Shown here: positions 12,225-61,453 of the stretch, piece after piece | Layout: each line of letters begins with the position of its first letter | How positions within the stretch are numbered: position 1 is the first letter of the stretch | Origin: Candidatus Woesebacteria bacterium GW2011_GWB1_39_12 | GTDB taxonomy: Bacteria; Patescibacteriota; Microgenomatia; UBA8517 | Reading direction: 5' to 3' | Length of the DNA stretch: 64,000 nt | NCBI GenBank assembly: GCA_000993405.1 | Contig: LBWB01000008.1 | Span: 26,325 to 90,324 of the forward strand | Position numbers and translations under genes: made by a program | Notes under the pieces: model-generated | Told to the model about the DNA's origin: nothing | Database searches by the model: none | The model's input: the letters and a program-made list of their open reading frames with translations, nothing else

Positions 12225-12299
12225 CCCAGTTAGATAGCTTACGCATCTAACGGGGCTAGGCACTTCACCCTAAACACCCCGCTTTCAAACGAAAACGGG
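12225..12299 (-). promoter_or_regulatory. Structured 5' leader of the surface-protein operon (two GC-rich hairpins)
   Basis: Minus-strand RNA would form CCCGUUUUC-GUUU-GAAAGCGGG (12278-12299) and CCCCGUUAGAU-(9 nt)-AUCUAACUGGGG (12225-12256), upstream of the SD/ATG at 12191. It is GC-rich in an AT-rich background. Confidence 0.4.
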
Positions 12300-35412: not shown

Positions 35413-36603
35413 ATGCTTAAACCGACCGATTGGATTATCGACGAACTTGAAAATCTCAAAAACCAAGGGCTTCTTATAAATATCCGAACTATCGAATCTC
35501 CAATGGGCTCCAAAATCAAAGTTAATGGAGAATGGGTTTTGAATTTTTGCTCGAATAACTACTTAGGATTGGCTAATGACTCCCGACTTAAGAAAGCTGC
35601 AAAAGAGGCAATTGATAAATACGGCATCGGACCAACTGCGGTTAGGACTATTGCAGGAACAACCGAGCTTCATCTAAAACTTGAAAAGGCTCTTGCAAAA
35701 TTCAAAAAGGTTGAAGATGTTATAACTTTTCAGTCTGGATTCAACGCGAATATAGCAACAATTCCGACACTTGTCGATGAGGGGGGTTTAATTTTTTCAG
35801 ACGAGCTAAATCACGCAAGCATAATTGACGCCTGCCGCTTGTCTAAAGCAGAAGTTGTGAGGTACAAACATTGCGATCCAAAAGATCTAGAACATAAGTT
35901 ATTAGAAACTAAAAAACTTAAAAACTTAAAAACAAAAAAACTCATTGTCACTGATGGGGTATTTTCAATGGACGGAGATATTGCCCCACTTCCCGAAATT
36001 CAAAAATTATCTGAAAAATACGGATGTATTTTGATGGTTGATGACGCGCACGGAGAAGGAGTTTTGGGCAAAAACGGTCGCGGTGTTGTAGATTACTTCA
36101 ATCTGCATGGAAAGGTAGATCTCGAAATTGGAACAATGAGCAAGGCTTTTGGGGTAGTTGGAGGTTATGTTGCTGGAAGAAAAATAATTATTGATTGGCT
36201 AAGGCAACGCGCTCGTCCATTTCTCTTTTCTTCAGCTATGACTATTCCAGACGTTGCCGGCTGTCTTGCCGCAGTAAAAATTCTCAACAAATCTGACAAG
36301 CAAGTTGTAAAACTCTGGGAAAACACACGCTACTTTAAAAAAGGACTGGCTAAATTAGGGTTTGACATCGGAAAAAGCCAAACACCGATTGTTCCGGTCA
36401 TGCTTGGAGAAGCAAAACTTGCACAGGAATTCAGTAAGAAATTATTTGAAGAAGGAATTTTCGCTATGGCAATCGGCTACCCGACTGTCCCGCAAGGCAA
36501 AGCCCGAATCCGTGTAATGATGAGCGCAAGTCATTCCCGAAAAGAACTTGATATATGTCTTGATGCGTTTTCAAAAATAGGGGAAAAATTGGGTGTAATA
36601 TAG
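35413..36603 (+). CDS. kbl: 2-amino-3-ketobutyrate CoA ligase (glycine C-acetyltransferase), alpha-oxoamine synthase family
   Basis: PLP lysine 'GTMSKAFG' and '[10 protein letters not shown]'. A threonine-dehydrogenase-like gene lies immediately downstream. TACAAT sits 8 nt before the ATG. Confidence 0.8.
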
Positions 36604-36716
36604 AAATATGCCATGGTCTTATTCCTGCTCTTTCTGAATTAAAAAAATATAACATTGTTGCGCTCGATATCCGAGAACTCGATGACGCACTCAAACCTTT
36701 CGTTCATGAAACAATC

Positions 36717-37589
36717 GTGGCAGATATTTTGGATAAAAGCGTCATTGAAAATCTTCTGAAAGAACATAAAATTTCAGCCATCTTTCATTTGGCAGCACTC
36801 CTTTCTAGCGCAGCCGAAAAAGATCCCGAGCGTGCACACGAGGTAAATGTAAATGGAACCATGGCACTTCTTAGTAACACTCACCGTGTCGCTTCAAGCG
36901 AAAAAAGGGTAATTAAATTTATTTTCCCGAGCTCAATCGCGGTCTACGGCATCCCCAATATTGATACAAAAAACAGAGCAAAACCGGTCAACGAAGATGA
37001 ATTCAATACCCCAATTACAATGTATGGAATAAACAAACTTTATTGCGAAATGTTGGGAGAATATTACTTAAAGTATTACAAATCACTGAACACTGAACAC
37101 AGTTCACTTAATCTCGACTTTCGCTGTCTAAGGTTTCCCGGAATAATAAGTGCCTTGACTGTTCCTTCCGGTGGAACGAGCGACTATGCGCCGGAAATGA
37201 TTCACTCCGCAGCTCAAGGAAAAGGCTACGAAACATTTGTCCGTCCCGACACGATCATTCCCTTTATGGTAATGCCAGATGCCGTAAAAGCATTGATTCA
37301 ATTAAATGAAGTATCTAGAGAAAAGCTAACAAAAAATGTTTATAACGTAACGGCGTTCAGCACGACAGCGGGAGAGATCGCGGATCTTGTTAATAAAGTA
37401 TTTCCTGATTCTGCGATAAGTTATAAACCTGATTCAAACCGTCAAAAAATCGTCGACTCCTGGCCTTCCAATATTGACGATTCTGCTGCTCGAAAGGACT
37501 GGGGGTGGATTCCCGATTACGATATTCAAAAAGCTTTTAATGATTACTTAATTCCCGAAATACAAAATAGATACAATAATGAAAAATAA
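36717..37589 (+). CDS. tdh: L-threonine 3-dehydrogenase, SDR/epimerase type. Annotated GTG start; N-terminus anomalous (see finding).
   Basis: The 290-aa frame resembles UDP-glucose-4-epimerase-like TDH. The same frame stays open upstream to a TGA at 36561-36563 and encodes 'ICHGLIPALSELKKYNIVALDIRE', TDH N-terminus-like but lacking GxxGxxG. There is no ATG/GTG/TTG before 36717. Confidence 0.6.
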   Translation: MADILDKSVIENLLKEHKISAIFHLAALLSSAAEKDPERAHEVNVNGTMALLSNTHRVASSEKRVIKFIFPSSIAVYGIPNIDTKNRAKPVNEDEFNTPITMYGINKLYCEMLGEYYLKYYKSLNTEHSSLNLDFRCLRFPGIISALTVPSGGTSDYAPEMIHSAAQGKGYETFVRPDTIIPFMVMPDAVKALIQLNEVSREKLTKNVYNVTAFSTTAGEIADLVNKVFPDSAISYKPDSNRQKIVDSWPSNIDDSAARKDWGWIPDYDIQKAFNDYLIPEIQNRYNNEK

Positions 37590-39764: not shown

Positions 39765-41543
39765 TTATATTTTCTGATCCTCCCACATTTTAGCAAATAC
39801 CCCATGCTTATTTAAAAGATTATCAAAACTGCCCCGTTCTACTACTTTACCCCGATCAAGAACTACGATTTTATCCATTGCCTTAATCGTTGAAAGGCGA
39901 TGTGCAATAACAATAGTCGTAAACTTATGCATAAATCCTTGTAAGGCTTTTTGAATTTCCTTTTCCGAATGCGCATCCAAATGCGAAGTGGCCTCGTCCA
40001 AGAGTAGTATGTCGGGCTGGCGAAAAAGTGCTCTGGCAATACCAACGCGTTGTCTTTGACCTCCTGAGAGTTTAATTCCCTTTTCACCCACAATAGTATT
40101 TACACCTTGGGGTAGTTGTTTTACCACATCATCGAGGTGTGCCATTCGGATTGCCTCGTGGAAAAGTTTGGGCTCTAAGTGAACTCCATCAACCGCTGCT
40201 ATCTCTATATTCTCCTTTAAAGTCATATCAAAAAGTTCAGTATCCTGAAGTACAACTGCGACATGATTAATGTAAGATTGTCTCTTCATCCCCTTCAAAG
40301 AAATATTATCAATTGAAATATCACCTTCATAATCTTCGTATAAATCCAAAAGTAGCTTAAATAACGTAGACTTTCCTGCACCTGAAAGCCCAACAATGCC
40401 AATCTTCTCACCACGTTTAATTGTTATTGAGATACTCTTTAAAGTTTTATTTTTCTTGTAAGCAAATTTTAATTTATTAATTTTAATCTCTTTCCACTCT
40501 TGGGGATATTCAACTTGCGCCTCAACTTTGGCGGGAAGTTCAATGTCAGGTTCAGTCCGTAAAATTGTCATAGTCCGCGACACCCAAATTTTCGCAAGAG
40601 CAAGCTGCTGAGTAACATCTGTCAATTCACGGGTAGAAGTTCCCACTTTCTGAAATAGGCCAATAAAGAGAACTAGTAAACTTATGTCGCTTCTTCCACT
40701 TACTATTCCCCATGCAAGTACTGCTATAACAACAAATTCAAAGATAGCCTCATACATTAGTAAGACCCCGCCCCTAAATTGAAATAAAAATACACGCCGG
40801 CGAATCTTTTGTATAAGAGGGGTAATATGCCTGCTGATAATACTAATCATCCCTTTGTCTATTGATAATGCTTTTATGGTTTGAATATTGTTTAGGGATT
40901 CAAAAGTTATTCCGCCCAAATCCTCAAAAGCCTTATTTACTATTCGCTCTTGGGTCACCGCGCGCTTAAGTAAGTAGTTACCAATAGCGAAATATGTTGC
41001 AATGAAAAATATCAGACTAAGGCTAAGAGTTTTCTCCAGAGTGAAGAAAATAAGAACTATCCCGACAATGTTTACTGCAACTTCTATTAATACATCAAAA
41101 ATCCGTCGAATTGTTACATTAATTCCATCCAAACCTTTATCTATACGTTTCATCTTGTTACCACTGTTTTCCTTTTCCTGCCAGGTCAAATCTAGTTTGA
41201 AAATATGAGAAAGGCTTTCTTTATAAATATCAAGAGAAGCTTTTTCAGCCACCTGGTATCCAAAATATTTAGAAAGGTTATGTGCAAATCCGTAGTACAA
41301 AGTAACTAAGCCCCAAGTGACTAATATTGAAATAAGATCCTGCGGAACTTCAAAAGATTGTTGATTTGAAAGTATTAGTACGATTCTGCTAACCGCCCAC
41401 GCCGGATAAAGACGTGCAAGATCGCTAGTGAATCGGAAAAATATTCCCACAAAAAACTGACCGCGATATGGCGAAATATAATGTGCTAAATCACGTATAA
41501 ACATAAAGAGTGTGTATTTTTTCACTTGATCCATACTTAACAA
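39765..41543 (-). CDS. ABC exporter, fused permease/ATP-binding (MsbA-like)
   Basis: Six-TM N-terminal domain. Walker A 'GLSGAGKST', signature 'LSGGQRQRVGIARAL' and Walker B 'LLLDEATSHLD'. Confidence 0.75.
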   Translation of the reverse strand: MLSMDQVKKYTLFMFIRDLAHYISPYRGQFFVGIFFRFTSDLARLYPAWAVSRIVLILSNQQSFEVPQDLISILVTWGLVTLYYGFAHNLSKYFGYQVAEKASLDIYKESLSHIFKLDLTWQEKENSGNKMKRIDKGLDGINVTIRRIFDVLIEVAVNIVGIVLIFFTLEKTLSLSLIFFIATYFAIGNYLLKRAVTQERIVNKAFEDLGGITFESLNNIQTIKALSIDKGMISIISRHITPLIQKIRRRVFLFQFRGGVLLMYEAIFEFVVIAVLAWGIVSGRSDISLLVLFIGLFQKVGTSTRELTDVTQQLALAKIWVSRTMTILRTEPDIELPAKVEAQVEYPQEWKEIKINKLKFAYKKNKTLKSISITIKRGEKIGIVGLSGAGKSTLFKLLLDLYEDYEGDISIDNISLKGMKRQSYINHVAVVLQDTELFDMTLKENIEIAAVDGVHLEPKLFHEAIRMAHLDDVVKQLPQGVNTIVGEKGIKLSGGQRQRVGIARALFRQPDILLLDEATSHLDAHSEKEIQKALQGFMHKFTTIVIAHRLSTIKAMDKIVVLDRGKVVERGSFDNLLNKHGVFAKMWEDQKI

Positions 41544-42513: not shown

Positions 42514-44153
42514 TTATATATTACCTCGGCATTTTAATTCTGGGTTTGTTTCAAAACCCTTAAAAATAACTTTCCCTTGCTCATCTTTTAATTCATAAGC
42601 CTCGGTTAGTTTGTGTTCCTTAGCCTGACCTTCTGAAATTGAAAGTTCATCTCCCACCAATATTTGTTTTACACACGGGTCTTTTTTCCATTCAAAAGCA
42701 CGTACTTCTATATTTGAAAATCTGTAACTCGTTTCCGGGGGCAGCGAGCGATAATAATCGTTTTTGTAAATCGGACTAACCTCCTTTTGATAGATGGCTG
42801 GAGGATAATTCAGATAATATAAAAGTAAAATATAATTTCTTGGATTTCTGGTATTATCAATTACAAAACTGGAATTAGGATTTCTTTTTATGAAATCAGA
42901 AACCTCGGAATATCCATAATTCCAAGCAGTAGCACGCTCTATTGGAAATAATACAAAATAAGAACGATAAAGGAGGATCAAAGAATACAAAGATAAGAGG
43001 ATAAAAGTCAGCAAAGCATACCTCCAGTTTAACTTAATCCAGATAAAATCTAACCCCAGACCTATGACAATAATCAAAGGCAGTAAAAACGGTAATGCTC
43101 TTTGAATGGAAATAAACTGTCCGGAGAAAACTGCGGGAATTAAAGATGTTACAAAAAGAAGTAAAACAAATTTGTAACCAGTTTTTTTGATTGAAGTGAA
43201 AAGAAGATAAATACCGATTAAAAAAGGTATAACCAGAAAGTTGTACATTACGGAAATTCCAGGGATGGTATGCTGCATATCTATATCGGAAAGCTCGTAA
43301 AAAAGATTCCTGGGAGAAATGTAAGTAAACGTTTGATTAATAATACTTGATACAACCTAGAAATGTAAGTAAACGTTTGATTAATAATACTTGATACAAC
43401 CTGGCTTGAATTCTGCTCAGTCAGTCTTTCATTCTTAACCCAAAACGCAGGAGTATTAAGGACAAGAAAATTCGGAATTTGCAAAAGTATGATTACTAAA
43501 AAAGACAGTTTTAAAAACCTAAGATTTCTTTTTTGAAAAACTAATTTTCTAAAAACTAAAAAGTAAAAAGTAAGAAAAATCGGAACAAGATACCTCTGGG
43601 TGTGTGCCGCATAAGTTGATAAAGACAAAAAGATAGATCCCCAAATTAAATTCTTAGGGTTTTTAAACGCTATGTAGACAAAATAGATTCCTATGTTAAA
43701 CAGGAGGTACGCTAAGGTAACTTCGTATCCAAGCCTTGCATTGAAAACGAGCCATGGACTTATCGCGTAAAAAAAGGTAGCAAAAAATAAAGTAATCGAA
43801 GATTTGAATATATTAAGTTTTTTAATAAGAAAAAAGAAAAAAACAATACTAACCAATGCGGATATAGCAGATATGCTTCTGAAAATAAAAGGTTCCATTC
43901 CGAAAAATGTTATAAAAGGCACTGATAAGTAAATAAATAAGGGCGGAGTGTAAGAGCCCAAAAGTCTAAACAAAATGGGGTATTGTTGTGCAAAAATATC
44001 CTTTCCGGTTTGAAGAATCGAAATGGCGTTATAAGCAATTGTTGCCTCGTCGACATAAAATCCATTAGGAATAGAATTTAATCTATAAAAGTAGACAAAT
44101 CCGGCAAATGTAAGAATAAGTAATAATATAAGAGCCGAAAACTTTCTAGTCAT
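42514..44153 (-). pseudogene. GT-C family glycosyltransferase (ArnT/PMT-like, GT39/GT83), one ancestral gene split into two ORFs by a 44-bp tandem duplication
   Basis: The upstream ORF 43281..44153 has many TMs and 'FYVDEATIAYNA' (the first-loop DE motif of PMT/ArnT-type GT-C enzymes). The downstream ORF 42514..43278 continues the TM domain and adds a soluble C-terminal domain. Removing one copy of the 44-bp repeat restores a single continuous frame ('...TFTYIS-PRNLFYELSDID-MQHTIPGISVMYNF...', ~529 aa). Confidence 0.75.
43315..43402. repeat. Perfect 44-bp x2 tandem duplication (frameshifting) inside the GT-C gene
   Basis: 43315-43358 and 43359-43402 are identical ('agaaatgtaagtaaacgtttgattaataatacttgatacaacct'). 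44 is not a multiple of 3. One copy reads in frame as QVVSSIINQTFTYIS; the second copy is read in a different frame as RLYQVLLIKRLLTF, and translation then runs out of frame into a stop. Confidence 0.9.
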
Positions 44154-44710
44154 ATTTTTCTATCAAATCTTAAAATCTTTGCAAGTCCGATAAAAATAAA
44201 GAGATCAATGAACGGAAAAAGAACAAATGGTCCATATTTCCCATGGATGCCAAGGATAGTAATAAGTAAAAAGGAAAAATTGATAAATCCAATTTGTAGA
44301 CGATTTTTTTTCTCAATAAAAAGAAAACCTCCATATAGAAAAAGAGGAAATGTAAGGAAGTTGAAGTAATTGGGGAAATAGAGATTCACGTCTACGGCGT
44401 CGAAGAAGTTTTTCTCGACCCTTTTAATAACCTGTATTTCTTTTTTTCGCTCCAATATATAGCCAAATCTTGCAAGTTTAGGGGGGTAAATGTTCATTCT
44501 TTGGATCTGCAAATCCAGTTCACTGGCACTAAATCTATAGACTTCCTTCAGATTTACCGATTTGATTTGAATAATAGCAATTATCGTGAATAAGATAATA
44601 AGAACTAAATTTACAAAAGATTTTGGTCTGTAAAAAGAAATAGCAAGAAAGACAAAAGTCAAAAAAACTAAAGCACCTAGAAAAATATTTTGGGAGAAAA
44701 TATCTAGCAT
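44150..44710 (-). CDS. Hypothetical polytopic membrane protein
   Basis: 186 aa, about 5 TMs. It is translationally coupled (4-nt overlap) to the GT-C gene. Confidence 0.35.
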   Translation of the reverse strand: MLDIFSQNIFLGALVFLTFVFLAISFYRPKSFVNLVLIILFTIIAIIQIKSVNLKEVYRFSASELDLQIQRMNIYPPKLARFGYILERKKEIQVIKRVEKNFFDAVDVNLYFPNYFNFLTFPLFLYGGFLFIEKKNRLQIGFINFSFLLITILGIHGKYGPFVLFPFIDLFIFIGLAKILRFDRKI

Positions 44711-44786: not shown

Positions 44787-45296
44787 ATGAATATGAAAAT
44801 AGCTGCCCTATTTTTAATAGCTTTCGCAATCGCATTGTTATCAAATACCCCAGTTGTTCGTGCGAGTATAAGCAATAATGTAAGGGCAAGTAGTTCAAGT
44901 GGAAACGGAGGCAACTCCAGCGTTAACGTAAATATAAAAAATAATGTAAATACGGGAACCAACACTTCTTCGTTTACCTCACAAACAAAAACTCAAGTTG
45001 ATATTAGCCAAACCGGCGAAGGAACATCTTCAGTAAATATAAACGGCAAAGAATGGAAACTTGAAGGCCCAGGAGAAATTAATGTTAATGAAAATTCTGA
45101 TTCAAATAGCCCAACACCAACGTCGGCACAAAATCCTACTTTAACCCCAACCGAAACGCCATCTCCTACACCAGAACCTACACCCGAAGTATTAGGAGAA
45201 AGCGACAAAGAAACATCATTATCTCTCGGTGAGTTAGTAGAAAACTTCTTCAAATCTCTTGAGCAATTCCTCACCAGAATTTTTAATAGGTCTTGA
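44787..45296 (+). CDS. Small secreted protein with S/N/T-rich region and PT-rich linker (possible short paralog of the repeat family)
   Basis: Signal peptide 'MNMKIAALFLIAFAIALLSNTPVVRA'. 'SSSGNGGNSSVNVNIKNNVNTGTNTSS' resembles the start of the module in paralogs A-C. Also 'SPTPTSAQNPTLTPTETPSPTPEPTPE'. Confidence 0.45.
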   Translation: MNMKIAALFLIAFAIALLSNTPVVRASISNNVRASSSSGNGGNSSVNVNIKNNVNTGTNTSSFTSQTKTQVDISQTGEGTSSVNINGKEWKLEGPGEINVNENSDSNSPTPTSAQNPTLTPTETPSPTPEPTPEVLGESDKETSLSLGELVENFFKSLEQFLTRIFNRS

Positions 45297-47211: not shown

Positions 47212-50007
47212 TTAGCCATATTGTGGATAATGACAACGTTTCCATTTCTTTCCGCTTCCGCACCAACAGGGGTCGTTGCGGCCAATTTTTCCTCGCCTCG
47301 CCGTAGCGTTAGCAGAGGCGGGTTCTTGTTGACGAGCAAACGCTTTAGATCCCCCTTCCGCACCCAATTCAGGAGTAGGCGTATCCATCAAGCCGGTTTG
47401 ATCCAAAGTGTCAACATTGGTTGTTGCCTGGGCAACAGGAATCTCAGATATGGGTTGCTGCATAACACCGATTCTGAATATTCTCCGCGCAAGCTCTCCA
47501 TCAATTCGATCAATTAAACCTTCAAAAAGTCCGAATGCTTCGTTTTTAAATTCAACCAGAGGATCTCGTTGTCCGTAAGCTCGAAGCCTTACCCCCTCGC
47601 GTAAACCGTCTAAATGATCTATGTGTTCAATCCAGTGTTTATCAATAGACCCAAGATAAGCAAATTTTTCGATCCCCCGCATTACATCTCCCAAGTCCTT
47701 CTCGCGACTTTCGTAAATATCATCAACTACTTTGACCAAAAAGGATCTAATATTTTCCTTACCATCCAGCTTTTTCAGCTGACTCTCAAGCCTCTTCATG
47801 GAAGCATCATCAAAAGGCACAATTTCCATAAGATGTACTAATACCTTTTCATAATCAACCGCATCCTGTGGACGACCAGCCTCTGGCTGGGGCGAGGACA
47901 ATAGAAGTATATTATCAATCTGATTTCCCAATTTTTCCAAGATTTCATTTTTTACATCTTTCACTTCCAAAACCTTGGCACGCAACTTATAAATTATCTC
48001 TCTTTGCTGGTTTATTACATTATCGTATTCAACAAGATTTTTCCTTGCGTCGAAATGAAAACCTTCGACTTTTACCTGAGCTTGCTCTATCGAGCGACTA
48101 ATCAGTTTATTTTCAATAGGCTGATCCTCAGGAAGTGATAATCTATCCATGATAGAAGAAATTTTTTCTCCTCCAAAAATCCTCATTAAATCGTCCTCCA
48201 AAGAAAGATAAAATCTTGACGAGCCCGGATCACCTTGACGACCCGACCGACCCCGAAGCTGATTATCAATCCGTCTTGATTCATGGCGCTCGGTCCCGAT
48301 AACATGGAGCCCTCCTGCCTTGACTACTTTCTCATGACATTCCTCCCAATTTTTATATTCTTTTGTTTTTTTAAATTTCTCACTCGAAATTCCTTCAGGT
48401 CGATCAGGAACAGAACCGCCTAAAACTACATCAACTCCTCGCCCGGCCATATTTGTTGCAACCGTAACACCACCAGGTTTGCCGGCATCAGCAATTATTG
48501 TTGCCTCTTTTTCGTGATTTTTGGCATTAAGAATATTGTGGGGAACTTTTTTACGTTTGAGGTAGTCACTTATTATTTCATTTTTCTCAATAGACGTTGT
48601 TCCGACCAAAATCGGTTGGCCTTTTTGGTGTCTTTCAATAATTTCATTAACAACGGCACCGTATTTCGCCCTGACCGTCTTATAAATGACGTCGGAATGA
48701 TCTTTCCGGATCATTTGCCTATGAGTCGGGATCACAACAACATCCAAGTCATAAATCTTTTTAAACTCTTCTGCTTCTGTTGCAGCCGTACCAGTCATAC
48801 CCCCCAACACTTCATACATTCTGAAATAGTTTTGAAAAGAAATTGTCGCCAGAGTCTTACTTTCCTGCTGTATTTTAACTTGTTCTTTGGCTTCGACTGC
48901 CTGGTGCAAACCATCGCTCCAGCGCCGCCCAAACATAAGTCGTCCAGTAAATTCGTCAACAATTGTCACTTGCCCCTCTTTCACCACATAATCTCTGTCC
49001 TGAAGATACAAGGTTTTTGCCCTTAGAGCGTTCTCAATATGATGAATTATTTCCCAGTCTTTCTCGTATAAATTCTCAACACCCAAAATCTTTTCAACCC
49101 TTGTTATCCCGTGCTCGGTAAGAGTTGCACTCCTCACCTTTTCGTCAATTGAAAAATCTGTATCAGGATTCAGTTTTTCTACCATGGAAGCAAACTTGTA
49201 ATATTTATCCGTCGGTTCAGTATCAGGAGCTGAAATAATAAGAGGGGTTCTGGCCTCATCAATCAAAATCGAGTCCACCTCATCGACAATGGCAAAATAG
49301 TGCCCGCCTCGCATCGGCTCGCCATCACGAGTCGAGGCGGGTCCGCGCTGCGACATTTCATCCAAACTTTGGACCATGTTGTCCCGAAGATAATCGAATC
49401 CGAACTCATTATTGGTTCCGTATGTAATATCGGCATTGTAAGCAGCTTTTCTTTCGGCAGGTTTGAGATGGGCCAAACGTTCGTCCCCATGGCTTGTATC
49501 GTTAAACTCGGGATCATAAACATACGACTTCCCTTCTTGAATAATAGAACCGGTTGTAAGACCGAGAAGATGAAAGATTGGTCCGTTCCAACCAGAATCA
49601 CGACGGGCTAAATAATCGTTAACCGTAACTAAGTGCGCTCCCTTACCGGAAAGTGCATGAAGATAAAGTGCGGGAACTGCAGATAAGGTTTTGCCCTCAC
49701 CTGTTTTTTGCTCAACAACCTTGCCCTCAAAAAGAGAAATTCCTGCCATCAACTGAACGTCATAAGGCTTAAGTCCTATTGCTCGCCAGCTAGCCTCTCG
49801 GGCAAGTGCAAAGGCTTCAGGAAGCAAATCTTCCAATTTTTCACCTTTTTCTATCCGTTTTTTAAGATCCCTGGTTTTTTCTGCAAAATTCTCGTTTTTT
49901 AATTTTTTAGTTTTTTCATCAAAGGCATTTATCTTATCAGTAATGCTTGCCAAACGATCAATTTCTCTTTGATTTAAATCCAAAAATTTTGAAAATAGCT
50001 TTAACAT
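47212..50007 (-). CDS. secA: Preprotein translocase ATPase SecA
   Basis: 931 aa. DEAD-like motor motifs, the HWD/HSD region and the C-terminal zinc finger 'CWCGSGKKWKRCH'. Confidence 0.9.
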   Translation of the reverse strand: MLKLFSKFLDLNQREIDRLASITDKINAFDEKTKKLKNENFAEKTRDLKKRIEKGEKLEDLLPEAFALAREASWRAIGLKPYDVQLMAGISLFEGKVVEQKTGEGKTLSAVPALYLHALSGKGAHLVTVNDYLARRDSGWNGPIFHLLGLTTGSIIQEGKSYVYDPEFNDTSHGDERLAHLKPAERKAAYNADITYGTNNEFGFDYLRDNMVQSLDEMSQRGPASTRDGEPMRGGHYFAIVDEVDSILIDEARTPLIISAPDTEPTDKYYKFASMVEKLNPDTDFSIDEKVRSATLTEHGITRVEKILGVENLYEKDWEIIHHIENALRAKTLYLQDRDYVVKEGQVTIVDEFTGRLMFGRRWSDGLHQAVEAKEQVKIQQESKTLATISFQNYFRMYEVLGGMTGTAATEAEEFKKIYDLDVVVIPTHRQMIRKDHSDVIYKTVRAKYGAVVNEIIERHQKGQPILVGTTSIEKNEIISDYLKRKKVPHNILNAKNHEKEATIIADAGKPGGVTVATNMAGRGVDVVLGGSVPDRPEGISSEKFKKTKEYKNWEECHEKVVKAGGLHVIGTERHESRRIDNQLRGRSGRQGDPGSSRFYLSLEDDLMRIFGGEKISSIMDRLSLPEDQPIENKLISRSIEQAQVKVEGFHFDARKNLVEYDNVINQQREIIYKLRAKVLEVKDVKNEILEKLGNQIDNILLLSSPQPEAGRPQDAVDYEKVLVHLMEIVPFDDASMKRLESQLKKLDGKENIRSFLVKVVDDIYESREKDLGDVMRGIEKFAYLGSIDKHWIEHIDHLDGLREGVRLRAYGQRDPLVEFKNEAFGLFEGLIDRIDGELARRIFRIGVMQQPISEIPVAQATTNVDTLDQTGLMDTPTPELGAEGGSKAFARQQEPASANATARRGKIGRNDPCWCGSGKKWKRCHYPQYG

Positions 50008-56108: not shown

Positions 56109-57336
56109 TTTTTACGATTTTATCCTTCCCCATCCACTTTCTCAAAACTTCCGGGACTACGACCGACCCGTCTTCCTGCTGATAATTTTCGAGAATTGCT
56201 AGAATTGGTCGTTGAGAAAAAGCAGTTCCGTTAAGCATATGAACATATTTAGTTATCCTTTTATCTTGGTATCTAATGTCCAATCCCCTCGCTTGAAAGT
56301 CGGTGCAGGTTGACGTGGAGGTCAACTCTCTGTACTTACTCTCTGACGGAAACCAACCATTAAGGTCGTATTTCCTCGCAGCCGGAATACCAAGATCCCC
56401 GCTACACATCTTAGAAACCTCATAAGGTATACCCAACGCCTGCAAAAAATTTTCTTCAAGACTCAGGAAGTACTCATGTTCGGAATCAGAATTCTCCTCT
56501 CGCGTAAAAGAAAACATTTCAACTTTGTTAAATTGATGCACTCTTAGCGAACCTTTCGTGTCTTTGCCATAAGAGCCTGCTTCTCTCCTAAAACAGGTAG
56601 AGTAGGCAACATATCGAAGCGGTAAAATCTTACCATCCAAAATCTCGCCAGCATGTAATGGACCAACCGACTGCTCCGATGTGCCCACTAAAACCAATCC
56701 ATCTTTATCTAAAACATACATATCTTCTTCCCCGCCATGTTCTAGATAGCCCATGCCCGCCATCATTTCTTTTTTAATAAGAACTGGTGGAATAATTGGA
56801 GTAAAACCTTCTTTTGTCAAAGTTTCTAGAGCAAATTGAACTATGGATTGGTCAAGCAAAACCCCATCGTCTTTCAAATAAAAAAATCTTGTCCCCGAAA
56901 CTTTAGCTGCTCTTTCGGTATCTATTATTCCCAATTCCTCTCCCAATTGCCAAAAGGGCTTGAATCCAAAATCGAACTTTCTCGGTTCACCCCACTTTCG
57001 AACAATTTCATTCTCTGATTCGTCTTTCCCGACTTTTACGTCTGCGCTTGGAATATTGGGAATCTTTGCCAAAGCTTCTTTCTGTTGCTGTTCCGACTTT
57101 TTAAGTTGAATTTCCAAACTCTGAAGTTCACCTTTAATTTTCTTACCTTTTTCAATATTCTTTTCCTTTGCTGCCAAATTTCTCTCCTTACGAAATTCTT
57201 CAACTTTTTGCAAAAACTCTCTCCACTTTTTATCCGCTTCCAATACAACATCAACTAACTTAGGATCGAGCTGCTTATCAGCAACTCCCCTTTTAACCTC
57301 TTCAGAATTTTCTCGAATATATTTTATATCCAGCAT
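56101..57336 (-). CDS. serS: Seryl-tRNA synthetase
   Basis: N-terminal coiled-coil arm plus a class II core (motifs 2 and 3; 'FRREAGS', 'GSGLA..R'). 411 aa. Confidence 0.85.
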   Translation of the reverse strand: MLDIKYIRENSEEVKRGVADKQLDPKLVDVVLEADKKWREFLQKVEEFRKERNLAAKEKNIEKGKKIKGELQSLEIQLKKSEQQQKEALAKIPNIPSADVKVGKDESENEIVRKWGEPRKFDFGFKPFWQLGEELGIIDTERAAKVSGTRFFYLKDDGVLLDQSIVQFALETLTKEGFTPIIPPVLIKKEMMAGMGYLEHGGEEDMYVLDKDGLVLVGTSEQSVGPLHAGEILDGKILPLRYVAYSTCFRREAGSYGKDTKGSLRVHQFNKVEMFSFTREENSDSEHEYFLSLEENFLQALGIPYEVSKMCSGDLGIPAARKYDLNGWFPSESKYRELTSTSTCTDFQARGLDIRYQDKRITKYVHMLNGTAFSQRPILAILENYQQEDGSVVVPEVLRKWMGKDKIVKNE

Positions 57337-61094: not shown

Positions 61095-61453
61095 AATTCA
61101 GTCTACCCGCCTTATTTTCGCACTCGGCTTTTCAGAATTATTCATTCACGCCTCGTGCCAAAATTCTTCGGCGGGTTGCACGCTATTAATATTCTGATAT
61201 CAATGTGTGCAAAAAAAACTCCCCCGATTGTTTTGGTATTTGTCGGAGGAAAATTTACTTTTTTTTAACTATCTCCCCAACAAATCACCCATTAACCTTA
61301 TTGGTAATTTGGGCGAAACAAATAAGAACGGGGGATATCAACATTTTGAATTTAATACTTCTCGAAAGTGTAATGATTACATTCCCATTTGTCAAGCTTC
61401 GCTTTTTGCCTTATTCTTGAGAATATTTCATCTTTTGGGGATGATTATTCTCT

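Follow-up and report, generated by a model that had tools for sequence, protein, structure and literature searches.

The window considered here, a 64,000-nucleotide stretch of the draft genome of Candidatus Woesebacteria bacterium GW2011_GWB1_39_12, contains two consecutive open reading frames (ORFs) on the minus strand, the products of which exactly match KKR00942.1 (290 aa) and KKR00941.1 (254 aa), both encoded on UT24_C0008 (105,609 bp) from the GW2011 Rifle aquifer series and both annotated as 'hypothetical proteins' in the public record. The first of these ORFs includes two copies of a 44-bp unit, and when one copy is deleted, an uninterrupted single ORF of 531 aa emerges that reads ...TFTYISPRNLFYELSDIDMQHTIPG... 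(Table 1). Because 44 is not a multiple of three, duplication of the unit within an ORF shifts the frame, and the exact loss of one copy restores it. The earlier note on this DNA had maintained that removal of one copy fuses both ORFs in frame, which is precisely what the restored ORF shows; it was also correct in describing a single gene, although the length given there, ~529 aa, has to be amended to 531 aa. Upstream of this gene, at 44150-44710 (-), lies a 186-aa multi-spanning membrane ORF that overlaps the start of the glycosyltransferase gene by 4 bases (ATGA). All related contigs retain it at this place beside the gene; no Pfam family matches it, and its product may act together with the glycosyltransferase.

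Table 1. Features of the split glycosyltransferase gene, and indels private to the window or to the sister bin UT23, in window coordinates
Feature	Position	Strand	Description
N-terminal ORF as deposited, 290 aa, KKR00942.1	43281..44153	-	Encodes GT-C residues 1-276 with the invariant D35-E36 motif, then an out-of-frame tail
C-terminal ORF as deposited, 254 aa, KKR00941.1	42514..43278	-	Residues 278-531: last transmembrane helices and C-terminal soluble domain
Whole GT-C (ArnT/PMT/OST-like) glycosyltransferase gene	42514..44153	-	531-aa ORF when one 44-mer is removed
Copy 1 of the 44-bp unit	43315..43358	-	AGAAATGTAAGTAAACGTTTGATTAATAATACTTGATACAACCT on the + strand; gene orientation encodes ...VVSSIINQTFTYIS
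Copy 2 of the 44-bp unit	43359..43402	-	Same letters as copy 1; all other assemblies have one copy only
Strain-variable (recombinant) tract	43406..43848	-	L008 differs at 85 sites; last variant at 43406
Private indel of the window, ~95 bp absent	12297/12298		Present in 9/9 other contigs; intergenic
Private indel of the window, 38 bp absent	36602-36610		Present in 10/10 other contigs (including UT23); epimerase start and Rossmann VLITGANG lost
Private indel of the window, 44 bp extra	43359	-	Consensus state in 15/15 other contigs; splits the GT-C gene
UT23 46-bp deletion	43217-43262		Same GT-C gene, 52 bp downstream of the duplication; gene split into 342 + 166 aa
UT23 deletion of ~97 bp			ABC transporter split into 73 + 462 aa
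UT23 indel of 24 bp			In aminotransferase
UT23 indel of 6 bp			In SecA
UT23 237-to-196-bp replacement			Seryl-tRNA synthetase split into 211 + 45 aa, versus 411 aa elsewhere
UT23 deletion of 103 bp			

Since the restored 531-aa protein has no Pfam match at E <= 0.01, its family membership was established through homologues and structure. Full-length homologues (~500-570 aa) number in the hundreds and come from Woesebacteria, Shapirobacteria and other Patescibacteria; among 45 of these that were sampled, 23 match PMT_2 (PF13231; best E-value 2.4e-8). When the profile of the 45 homologues was compared with the sequences in the PDB, it reached ArnT alone, and only marginally (E-value 0.58), so that a fold search was needed. 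Modelled with AlphaFold2 on the 45-homologue alignment, the restored protein gives a confident structure (pLDDT 93, pTM 0.91) with a multi-spanning membrane domain of the GT-C type; its best PDB fold matches in Foldseek are the ArnT structures 5F15/5EZM (E-value 2.5e-8, TM 0.56), followed by the oligosaccharyltransferases PglB, STT3 and AglB and by ALG12 and Pmt4. All 45 homologues share D35 and E36 without exception; in the model, this pair comes just past the first helix, which spans residues 2-22, and matches the conserved acidic motif that GT-C enzymes have in the first extracytoplasmic loop. By analogy with these enzymes, the pair has a putative catalytic role. The likeness to ArnT, PMT, PglB and STT3 thus consists in the GT-C fold, the invariant Asp-Glu after the first transmembrane helix and the PMT_2 matches of the relatives, whereas the identity to ArnT is 14% and the restored protein itself misses PMT_2. 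Judging from the model, the name 'ArnT/PMT-like GT-C glycosyltransferase' is correct at the level of the fold, in agreement with the assignment in the earlier note, and the restored protein belongs to a subfamily specific to Woesebacteria and other Patescibacteria.

The frameshift occurs after residue 276, directly ahead of the most conserved loop of the family (SPxxLF...DIDxQHTIP), and would remove the last transmembrane helices together with the entire C-terminal soluble domain. The 90%-identity cluster that contains the split products also contains intact 531-aa versions. The restored protein is identical to two proteins that are intact in other public assemblies, P0001 (100% identity) and P0125, of which the latter is present on 17 contigs. 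By contrast, a single contig is the only known source of the split products of 290 and 254 aa, and a look-up of the 290-aa product in the gene-position index returned nothing. Orthologues with 40-83% identity are single genes of ~500-570 aa.

The duplication was identified by Tandem Repeats Finder at 43315..43402 (period 44, 2.0 copies, 100% matches, no indels, score 176), and direct comparison showed the two 44-mers to be identical, in full accord with the perfect head-to-tail repeat reported initially. The internal junction between copy 1 and copy 2 reads ...CTTGATACAACCT followed immediately by AGAAATGTAAGTAAACG..., and there are no Ns at the duplication site in the window. The period-44 identity ends exactly at 43315 and at 43402, that is, it halts at the unit borders, and hence there is no junctional microhomology in register. 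Apart from the two copies, the 44-mer does not occur in the window with up to three mismatches (0 occurrences expected, 100 shuffles), and no other long perfect tandem duplication was detected within the 64 kb. Nor was any short-unit tract scoring above chance found in or near the glycosyltransferase gene, where only the two 44-nt copies are present. Two candidate explanations of the repeat were tried and rejected on these grounds: a simple-sequence-repeat contingency locus, which needs many units of 1-9 nt varying in copy number between relatives rather than 2 x 44 nt, and an origin by junctional microhomology or slippage, given that the identity ends at the unit borders and the nearby CCTGG pair is spaced by 47 nt, not 44.

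The glycosyltransferase gene is variable among co-existing strains. A co-occurring strain represented by ENA ERZ28564264 scaffold_13550 (hereinafter L008) carries 85 differences from the window (~19%), all of them within a tract of ~440 bp and none elsewhere in ~5.4 kb; beyond the tract, it is 100% identical to the window for 4 kb. The tract, a genuine strain mosaic, is located in the part of the gene that encodes the membrane domain (protein P0127 in this strain) and looks like an import by homologous recombination. In two other loci (L001 and L009), clusters of shared SNPs were observed at 40416-40737 (12 sites in ~320 bp, in the ABC-transporter gene) and at 45194-45239 (4 sites in 45 bp), which suggest that co-existing strains have exchanged other short segments by recombination as well.

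To compare the window with independent reconstructions, 39 loci were taken from other assemblies of the same population and aligned to it; these came from the MEGAHIT re-assemblies of runs SRR1658343, SRR1658462 and SRR1658465 (PRJNA268031, the Rifle aquifer 0.1-um filter time series; PMC10118389), from other ENA Rifle re-assemblies, from JGI and from the sister bin UT23. A single copy of the 44-mer and an intact 531-aa gene were found in 17/17 loci that cover the site (15 distinct contigs from 15 assemblies, among them re-assemblies of the three runs named above, JGI assemblies and UT23), contigs that represent the same population as the bin and may not represent the same sample. Apart from the repeat, two of these loci show no difference from the window (100% identity; L004 over 5.1 kb, L005 over 3.7 kb), and another one (L002) shows one mismatch in 7.6 kb. 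The two-copy allele is therefore confined to 1/16 assemblies, and no mixture of the two alleles is seen in any assembly. Neither a junction 30-mer (CTTGATACAACCTAGAAATGTAAGTAAACG) nor a 56-mer used as a single-copy control (CCTGGGAGAAATGTAAGTAAACGTTTGATTAATAATACTTGATACAACCTGGCTTG) was found in JGI metagenome contigs and GTDB representatives; as the control is absent as well, the population is not in those collections, and the scans say nothing either way.

These comparisons bear directly on the possibility that the duplication is real and very recent, became fixed or dominant in the sampled subpopulation and inactivated the glycosyltransferase gene, with pseudogenisation or heterogeneity as the outcome. 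The duplication is, after all, part of the deposited record and is perfect, as expected of a very young event; moreover, surface glycosylation genes do vary in CPR bacteria, and L008 carries a recombinant allele of this same gene. However, the two-copy allele is absent from all 15 independent contigs of the population, and the complete structure of 88 bp is shorter than a 150-bp read (PMC4736985), so that any assembler should recover this allele wherever it is common. The differences that set the window apart from the other assemblies along its whole length also speak against a recent duplication. Of the 62,055 positions for which three or more other assemblies provide coverage, none shows a SNP private to the window, yet the 64 kb contain two private indels (-95 bp and -38 bp) besides the +44 bp, an implausible spectrum of mutations. 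The sister bin UT23 has private indels of the same kind, even in the gene for seryl-tRNA synthetase. Altogether, a genuine recent duplication appears improbable.

The two other private indels of the window support the interpretation of the 44-bp duplication as an artefact. At 36602-36610, a 339-aa NAD-dependent epimerase is reduced to a 290-aa GTG-started ORF (36717..37589, +), and this loss of 38 bp is probably another local mis-assembly; a small CATATTTCT repeat stands where other assemblies have the 38 bp. The ~95 bp absent at 12297/12298 is a relatively GC-rich intergenic segment that reads TAATGAGATATAGTATTGGAAGCTGGCCGCAAACGGAGG...GGGGAGCCT in other assemblies; a search of this segment against Rfam returned only a sub-threshold match to a miRNA family, which was taken as chance.

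The same pattern recurs in UT23 (GW2011_GWA1_39_12, GCA_000993365.1, LBWA01000012.1; loci L007/L011/L020), which is 100% sequence-identical to the window and has a single 44-mer. This bin carries six private indels of its own, all different from those of the window, at positions of the window 36503-36528, 41217-41313, 43217-43262, 49363-49368, 56472-56710 and 61116-61220. The affected genes include that for seryl-tRNA synthetase, which is an essential gene. Private indels of 24-240 bp that are unaccompanied by point differences, are not shared with other assemblies and strike essential genes constitute an implausible mutational spectrum and, at the same time, a signature of local mis-assembly. 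On the strength of these sequence comparisons, we consider it highly probable that the 44-bp duplication arose as a local error of assembly or curation in one metagenome-assembled genome and that the gene of the organism itself is intact and encodes a 531-aa protein.

One observation on UT23 goes against an artefact: its 46-bp deletion is a second private indel in the same glycosyltransferase gene, which could be read as biological targeting. This brings up a reversible on/off switch, whereby the tandem duplication within the ORF would be the OFF state and the exact loss of one copy would be the ON state. The anatomy of the locus fits an OFF state (the duplication is located within the ORF, its length is not a multiple of three, and exact loss of one copy restores the frame), and the target is an enzyme of surface or envelope glycosylation. 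There is also a precedent in pneumococcus (Waite et al., 2001, 2003, cited in PMC4243769), where, in the capsule genes cap3A, cap8E and tts, a perfect tandem duplication within the ORF likewise frameshifts a surface-glycan gene and the exact loss of one copy restores function. The pneumococcal cases differ in that both states were repeatedly recovered from cultures and several duplication lengths recur per gene. In the Woesebacteria population, by contrast, 1 assembly has the OFF allele, 15 others have the ON allele and no assembly contains both, and the site has neither microhomology nor a repeat tract that would make it hypermutable. Furthermore, this gene has just one other lesion, the 46-bp deletion of UT23, and that deletion is one of six private indels scattered across unrelated genes of the bin. 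A switch of this kind is accordingly very unlikely, and it is just as hard to credit that the two-copy allele represents the OFF state in an ultra-small CPR bacterium with the 46-bp lesion in UT23 as a second, independent OFF allele.

The position of the duplication relative to the strain-variable tract suggests how an assembly error could have arisen. In the orientation of the gene, the duplication starts at 43402, 4 nt past the last variant of the tract at 43406; the chance of a random covered position being located within 4 nt of a variable site is ~2%. When the private indels of the window and UT23 are considered together, 4/9 are near known variable sites, the 44-bp duplication among them; the other private indels of the window (2/3) are not beside known strain-variable sites. 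The 97-bp deletion of UT23 directly adjoins three variant sites and has the ends of three other contigs within 60 bp. For the Rifle samples of this project line, assembly with IDBA-UD from 150-bp reads has been described (PMC4736985), and regions of zero coverage were repaired automatically by Velvet re-assembly of nearby reads, as for the 2015 CPR study (PMC5079060). According to the literature, this combination of IDBA-UD and automated Velvet patching can leave overlaps in duplicate. Under the scenario that we regard as likely, the sample would have contained two strains that differ over 43406..43848 and converge at 43405, so that the assembly graph would branch at this point and contigs would end there with overlapping ends. 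Scaffolding or an automated Velvet patch might then have joined the pieces with the 44-bp overlap kept and hence written twice, and the doubled overlap would have put the frameshift into the consensus. The length of 44 was also tried as the k or k-1 of the assembler, but it does not fit the documented IDBA-UD series of 40/60/80/100 (PMC4736985), and a plain de Bruijn overlap, given the last known variant at 43406, should measure 47 nt.

An error of this type has counterparts in the literature. Chen et al. (2020, Genome Res, PMC7111523) have described local errors in IDBA-UD metagenome scaffolds in which the overlap at a scaffold join is duplicated. These resemble the present case in having a short perfect duplicate at a join that breaks a gene in a bin from short-read data, in being private to one assembly and located beside strain non-uniqueness, and in the presence of other unsupported indels nearby. 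A difference is that the published duplicated flanks are separated by Ns, whereas here the copies abut. An assembly artefact was among the readings put forward in the earlier note and is the one favored here, with one copy in 15/15 contigs and private indels without private SNPs. The other readings listed there gained no support: recent pseudogenisation and population heterogeneity are at odds with the single copy in all 15 contigs, and phase variation with an OFF allele that is seen in one assembly only. The duplication is thus present in the record and very probably is not a feature of the organism.

Should the two-copy allele be real after all, it would be of modest interest as an example of glycosylation switching in a CPR bacterium; were it the OFF state of a reversible switch, this would be the first report from the Candidate Phyla Radiation of a surface-glycosylation gene subject to phase variation. 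The main value of the finding, however, is caution: a single GT-C glycosyltransferase appears in the record as two separate 'hypothetical proteins', and both the record of the window and UT23 very probably contain several local assembly errors that break genes. These bins from the 2015 CPR study would mislead counts of pseudogenes, inference of gene loss and screens for phase variation.
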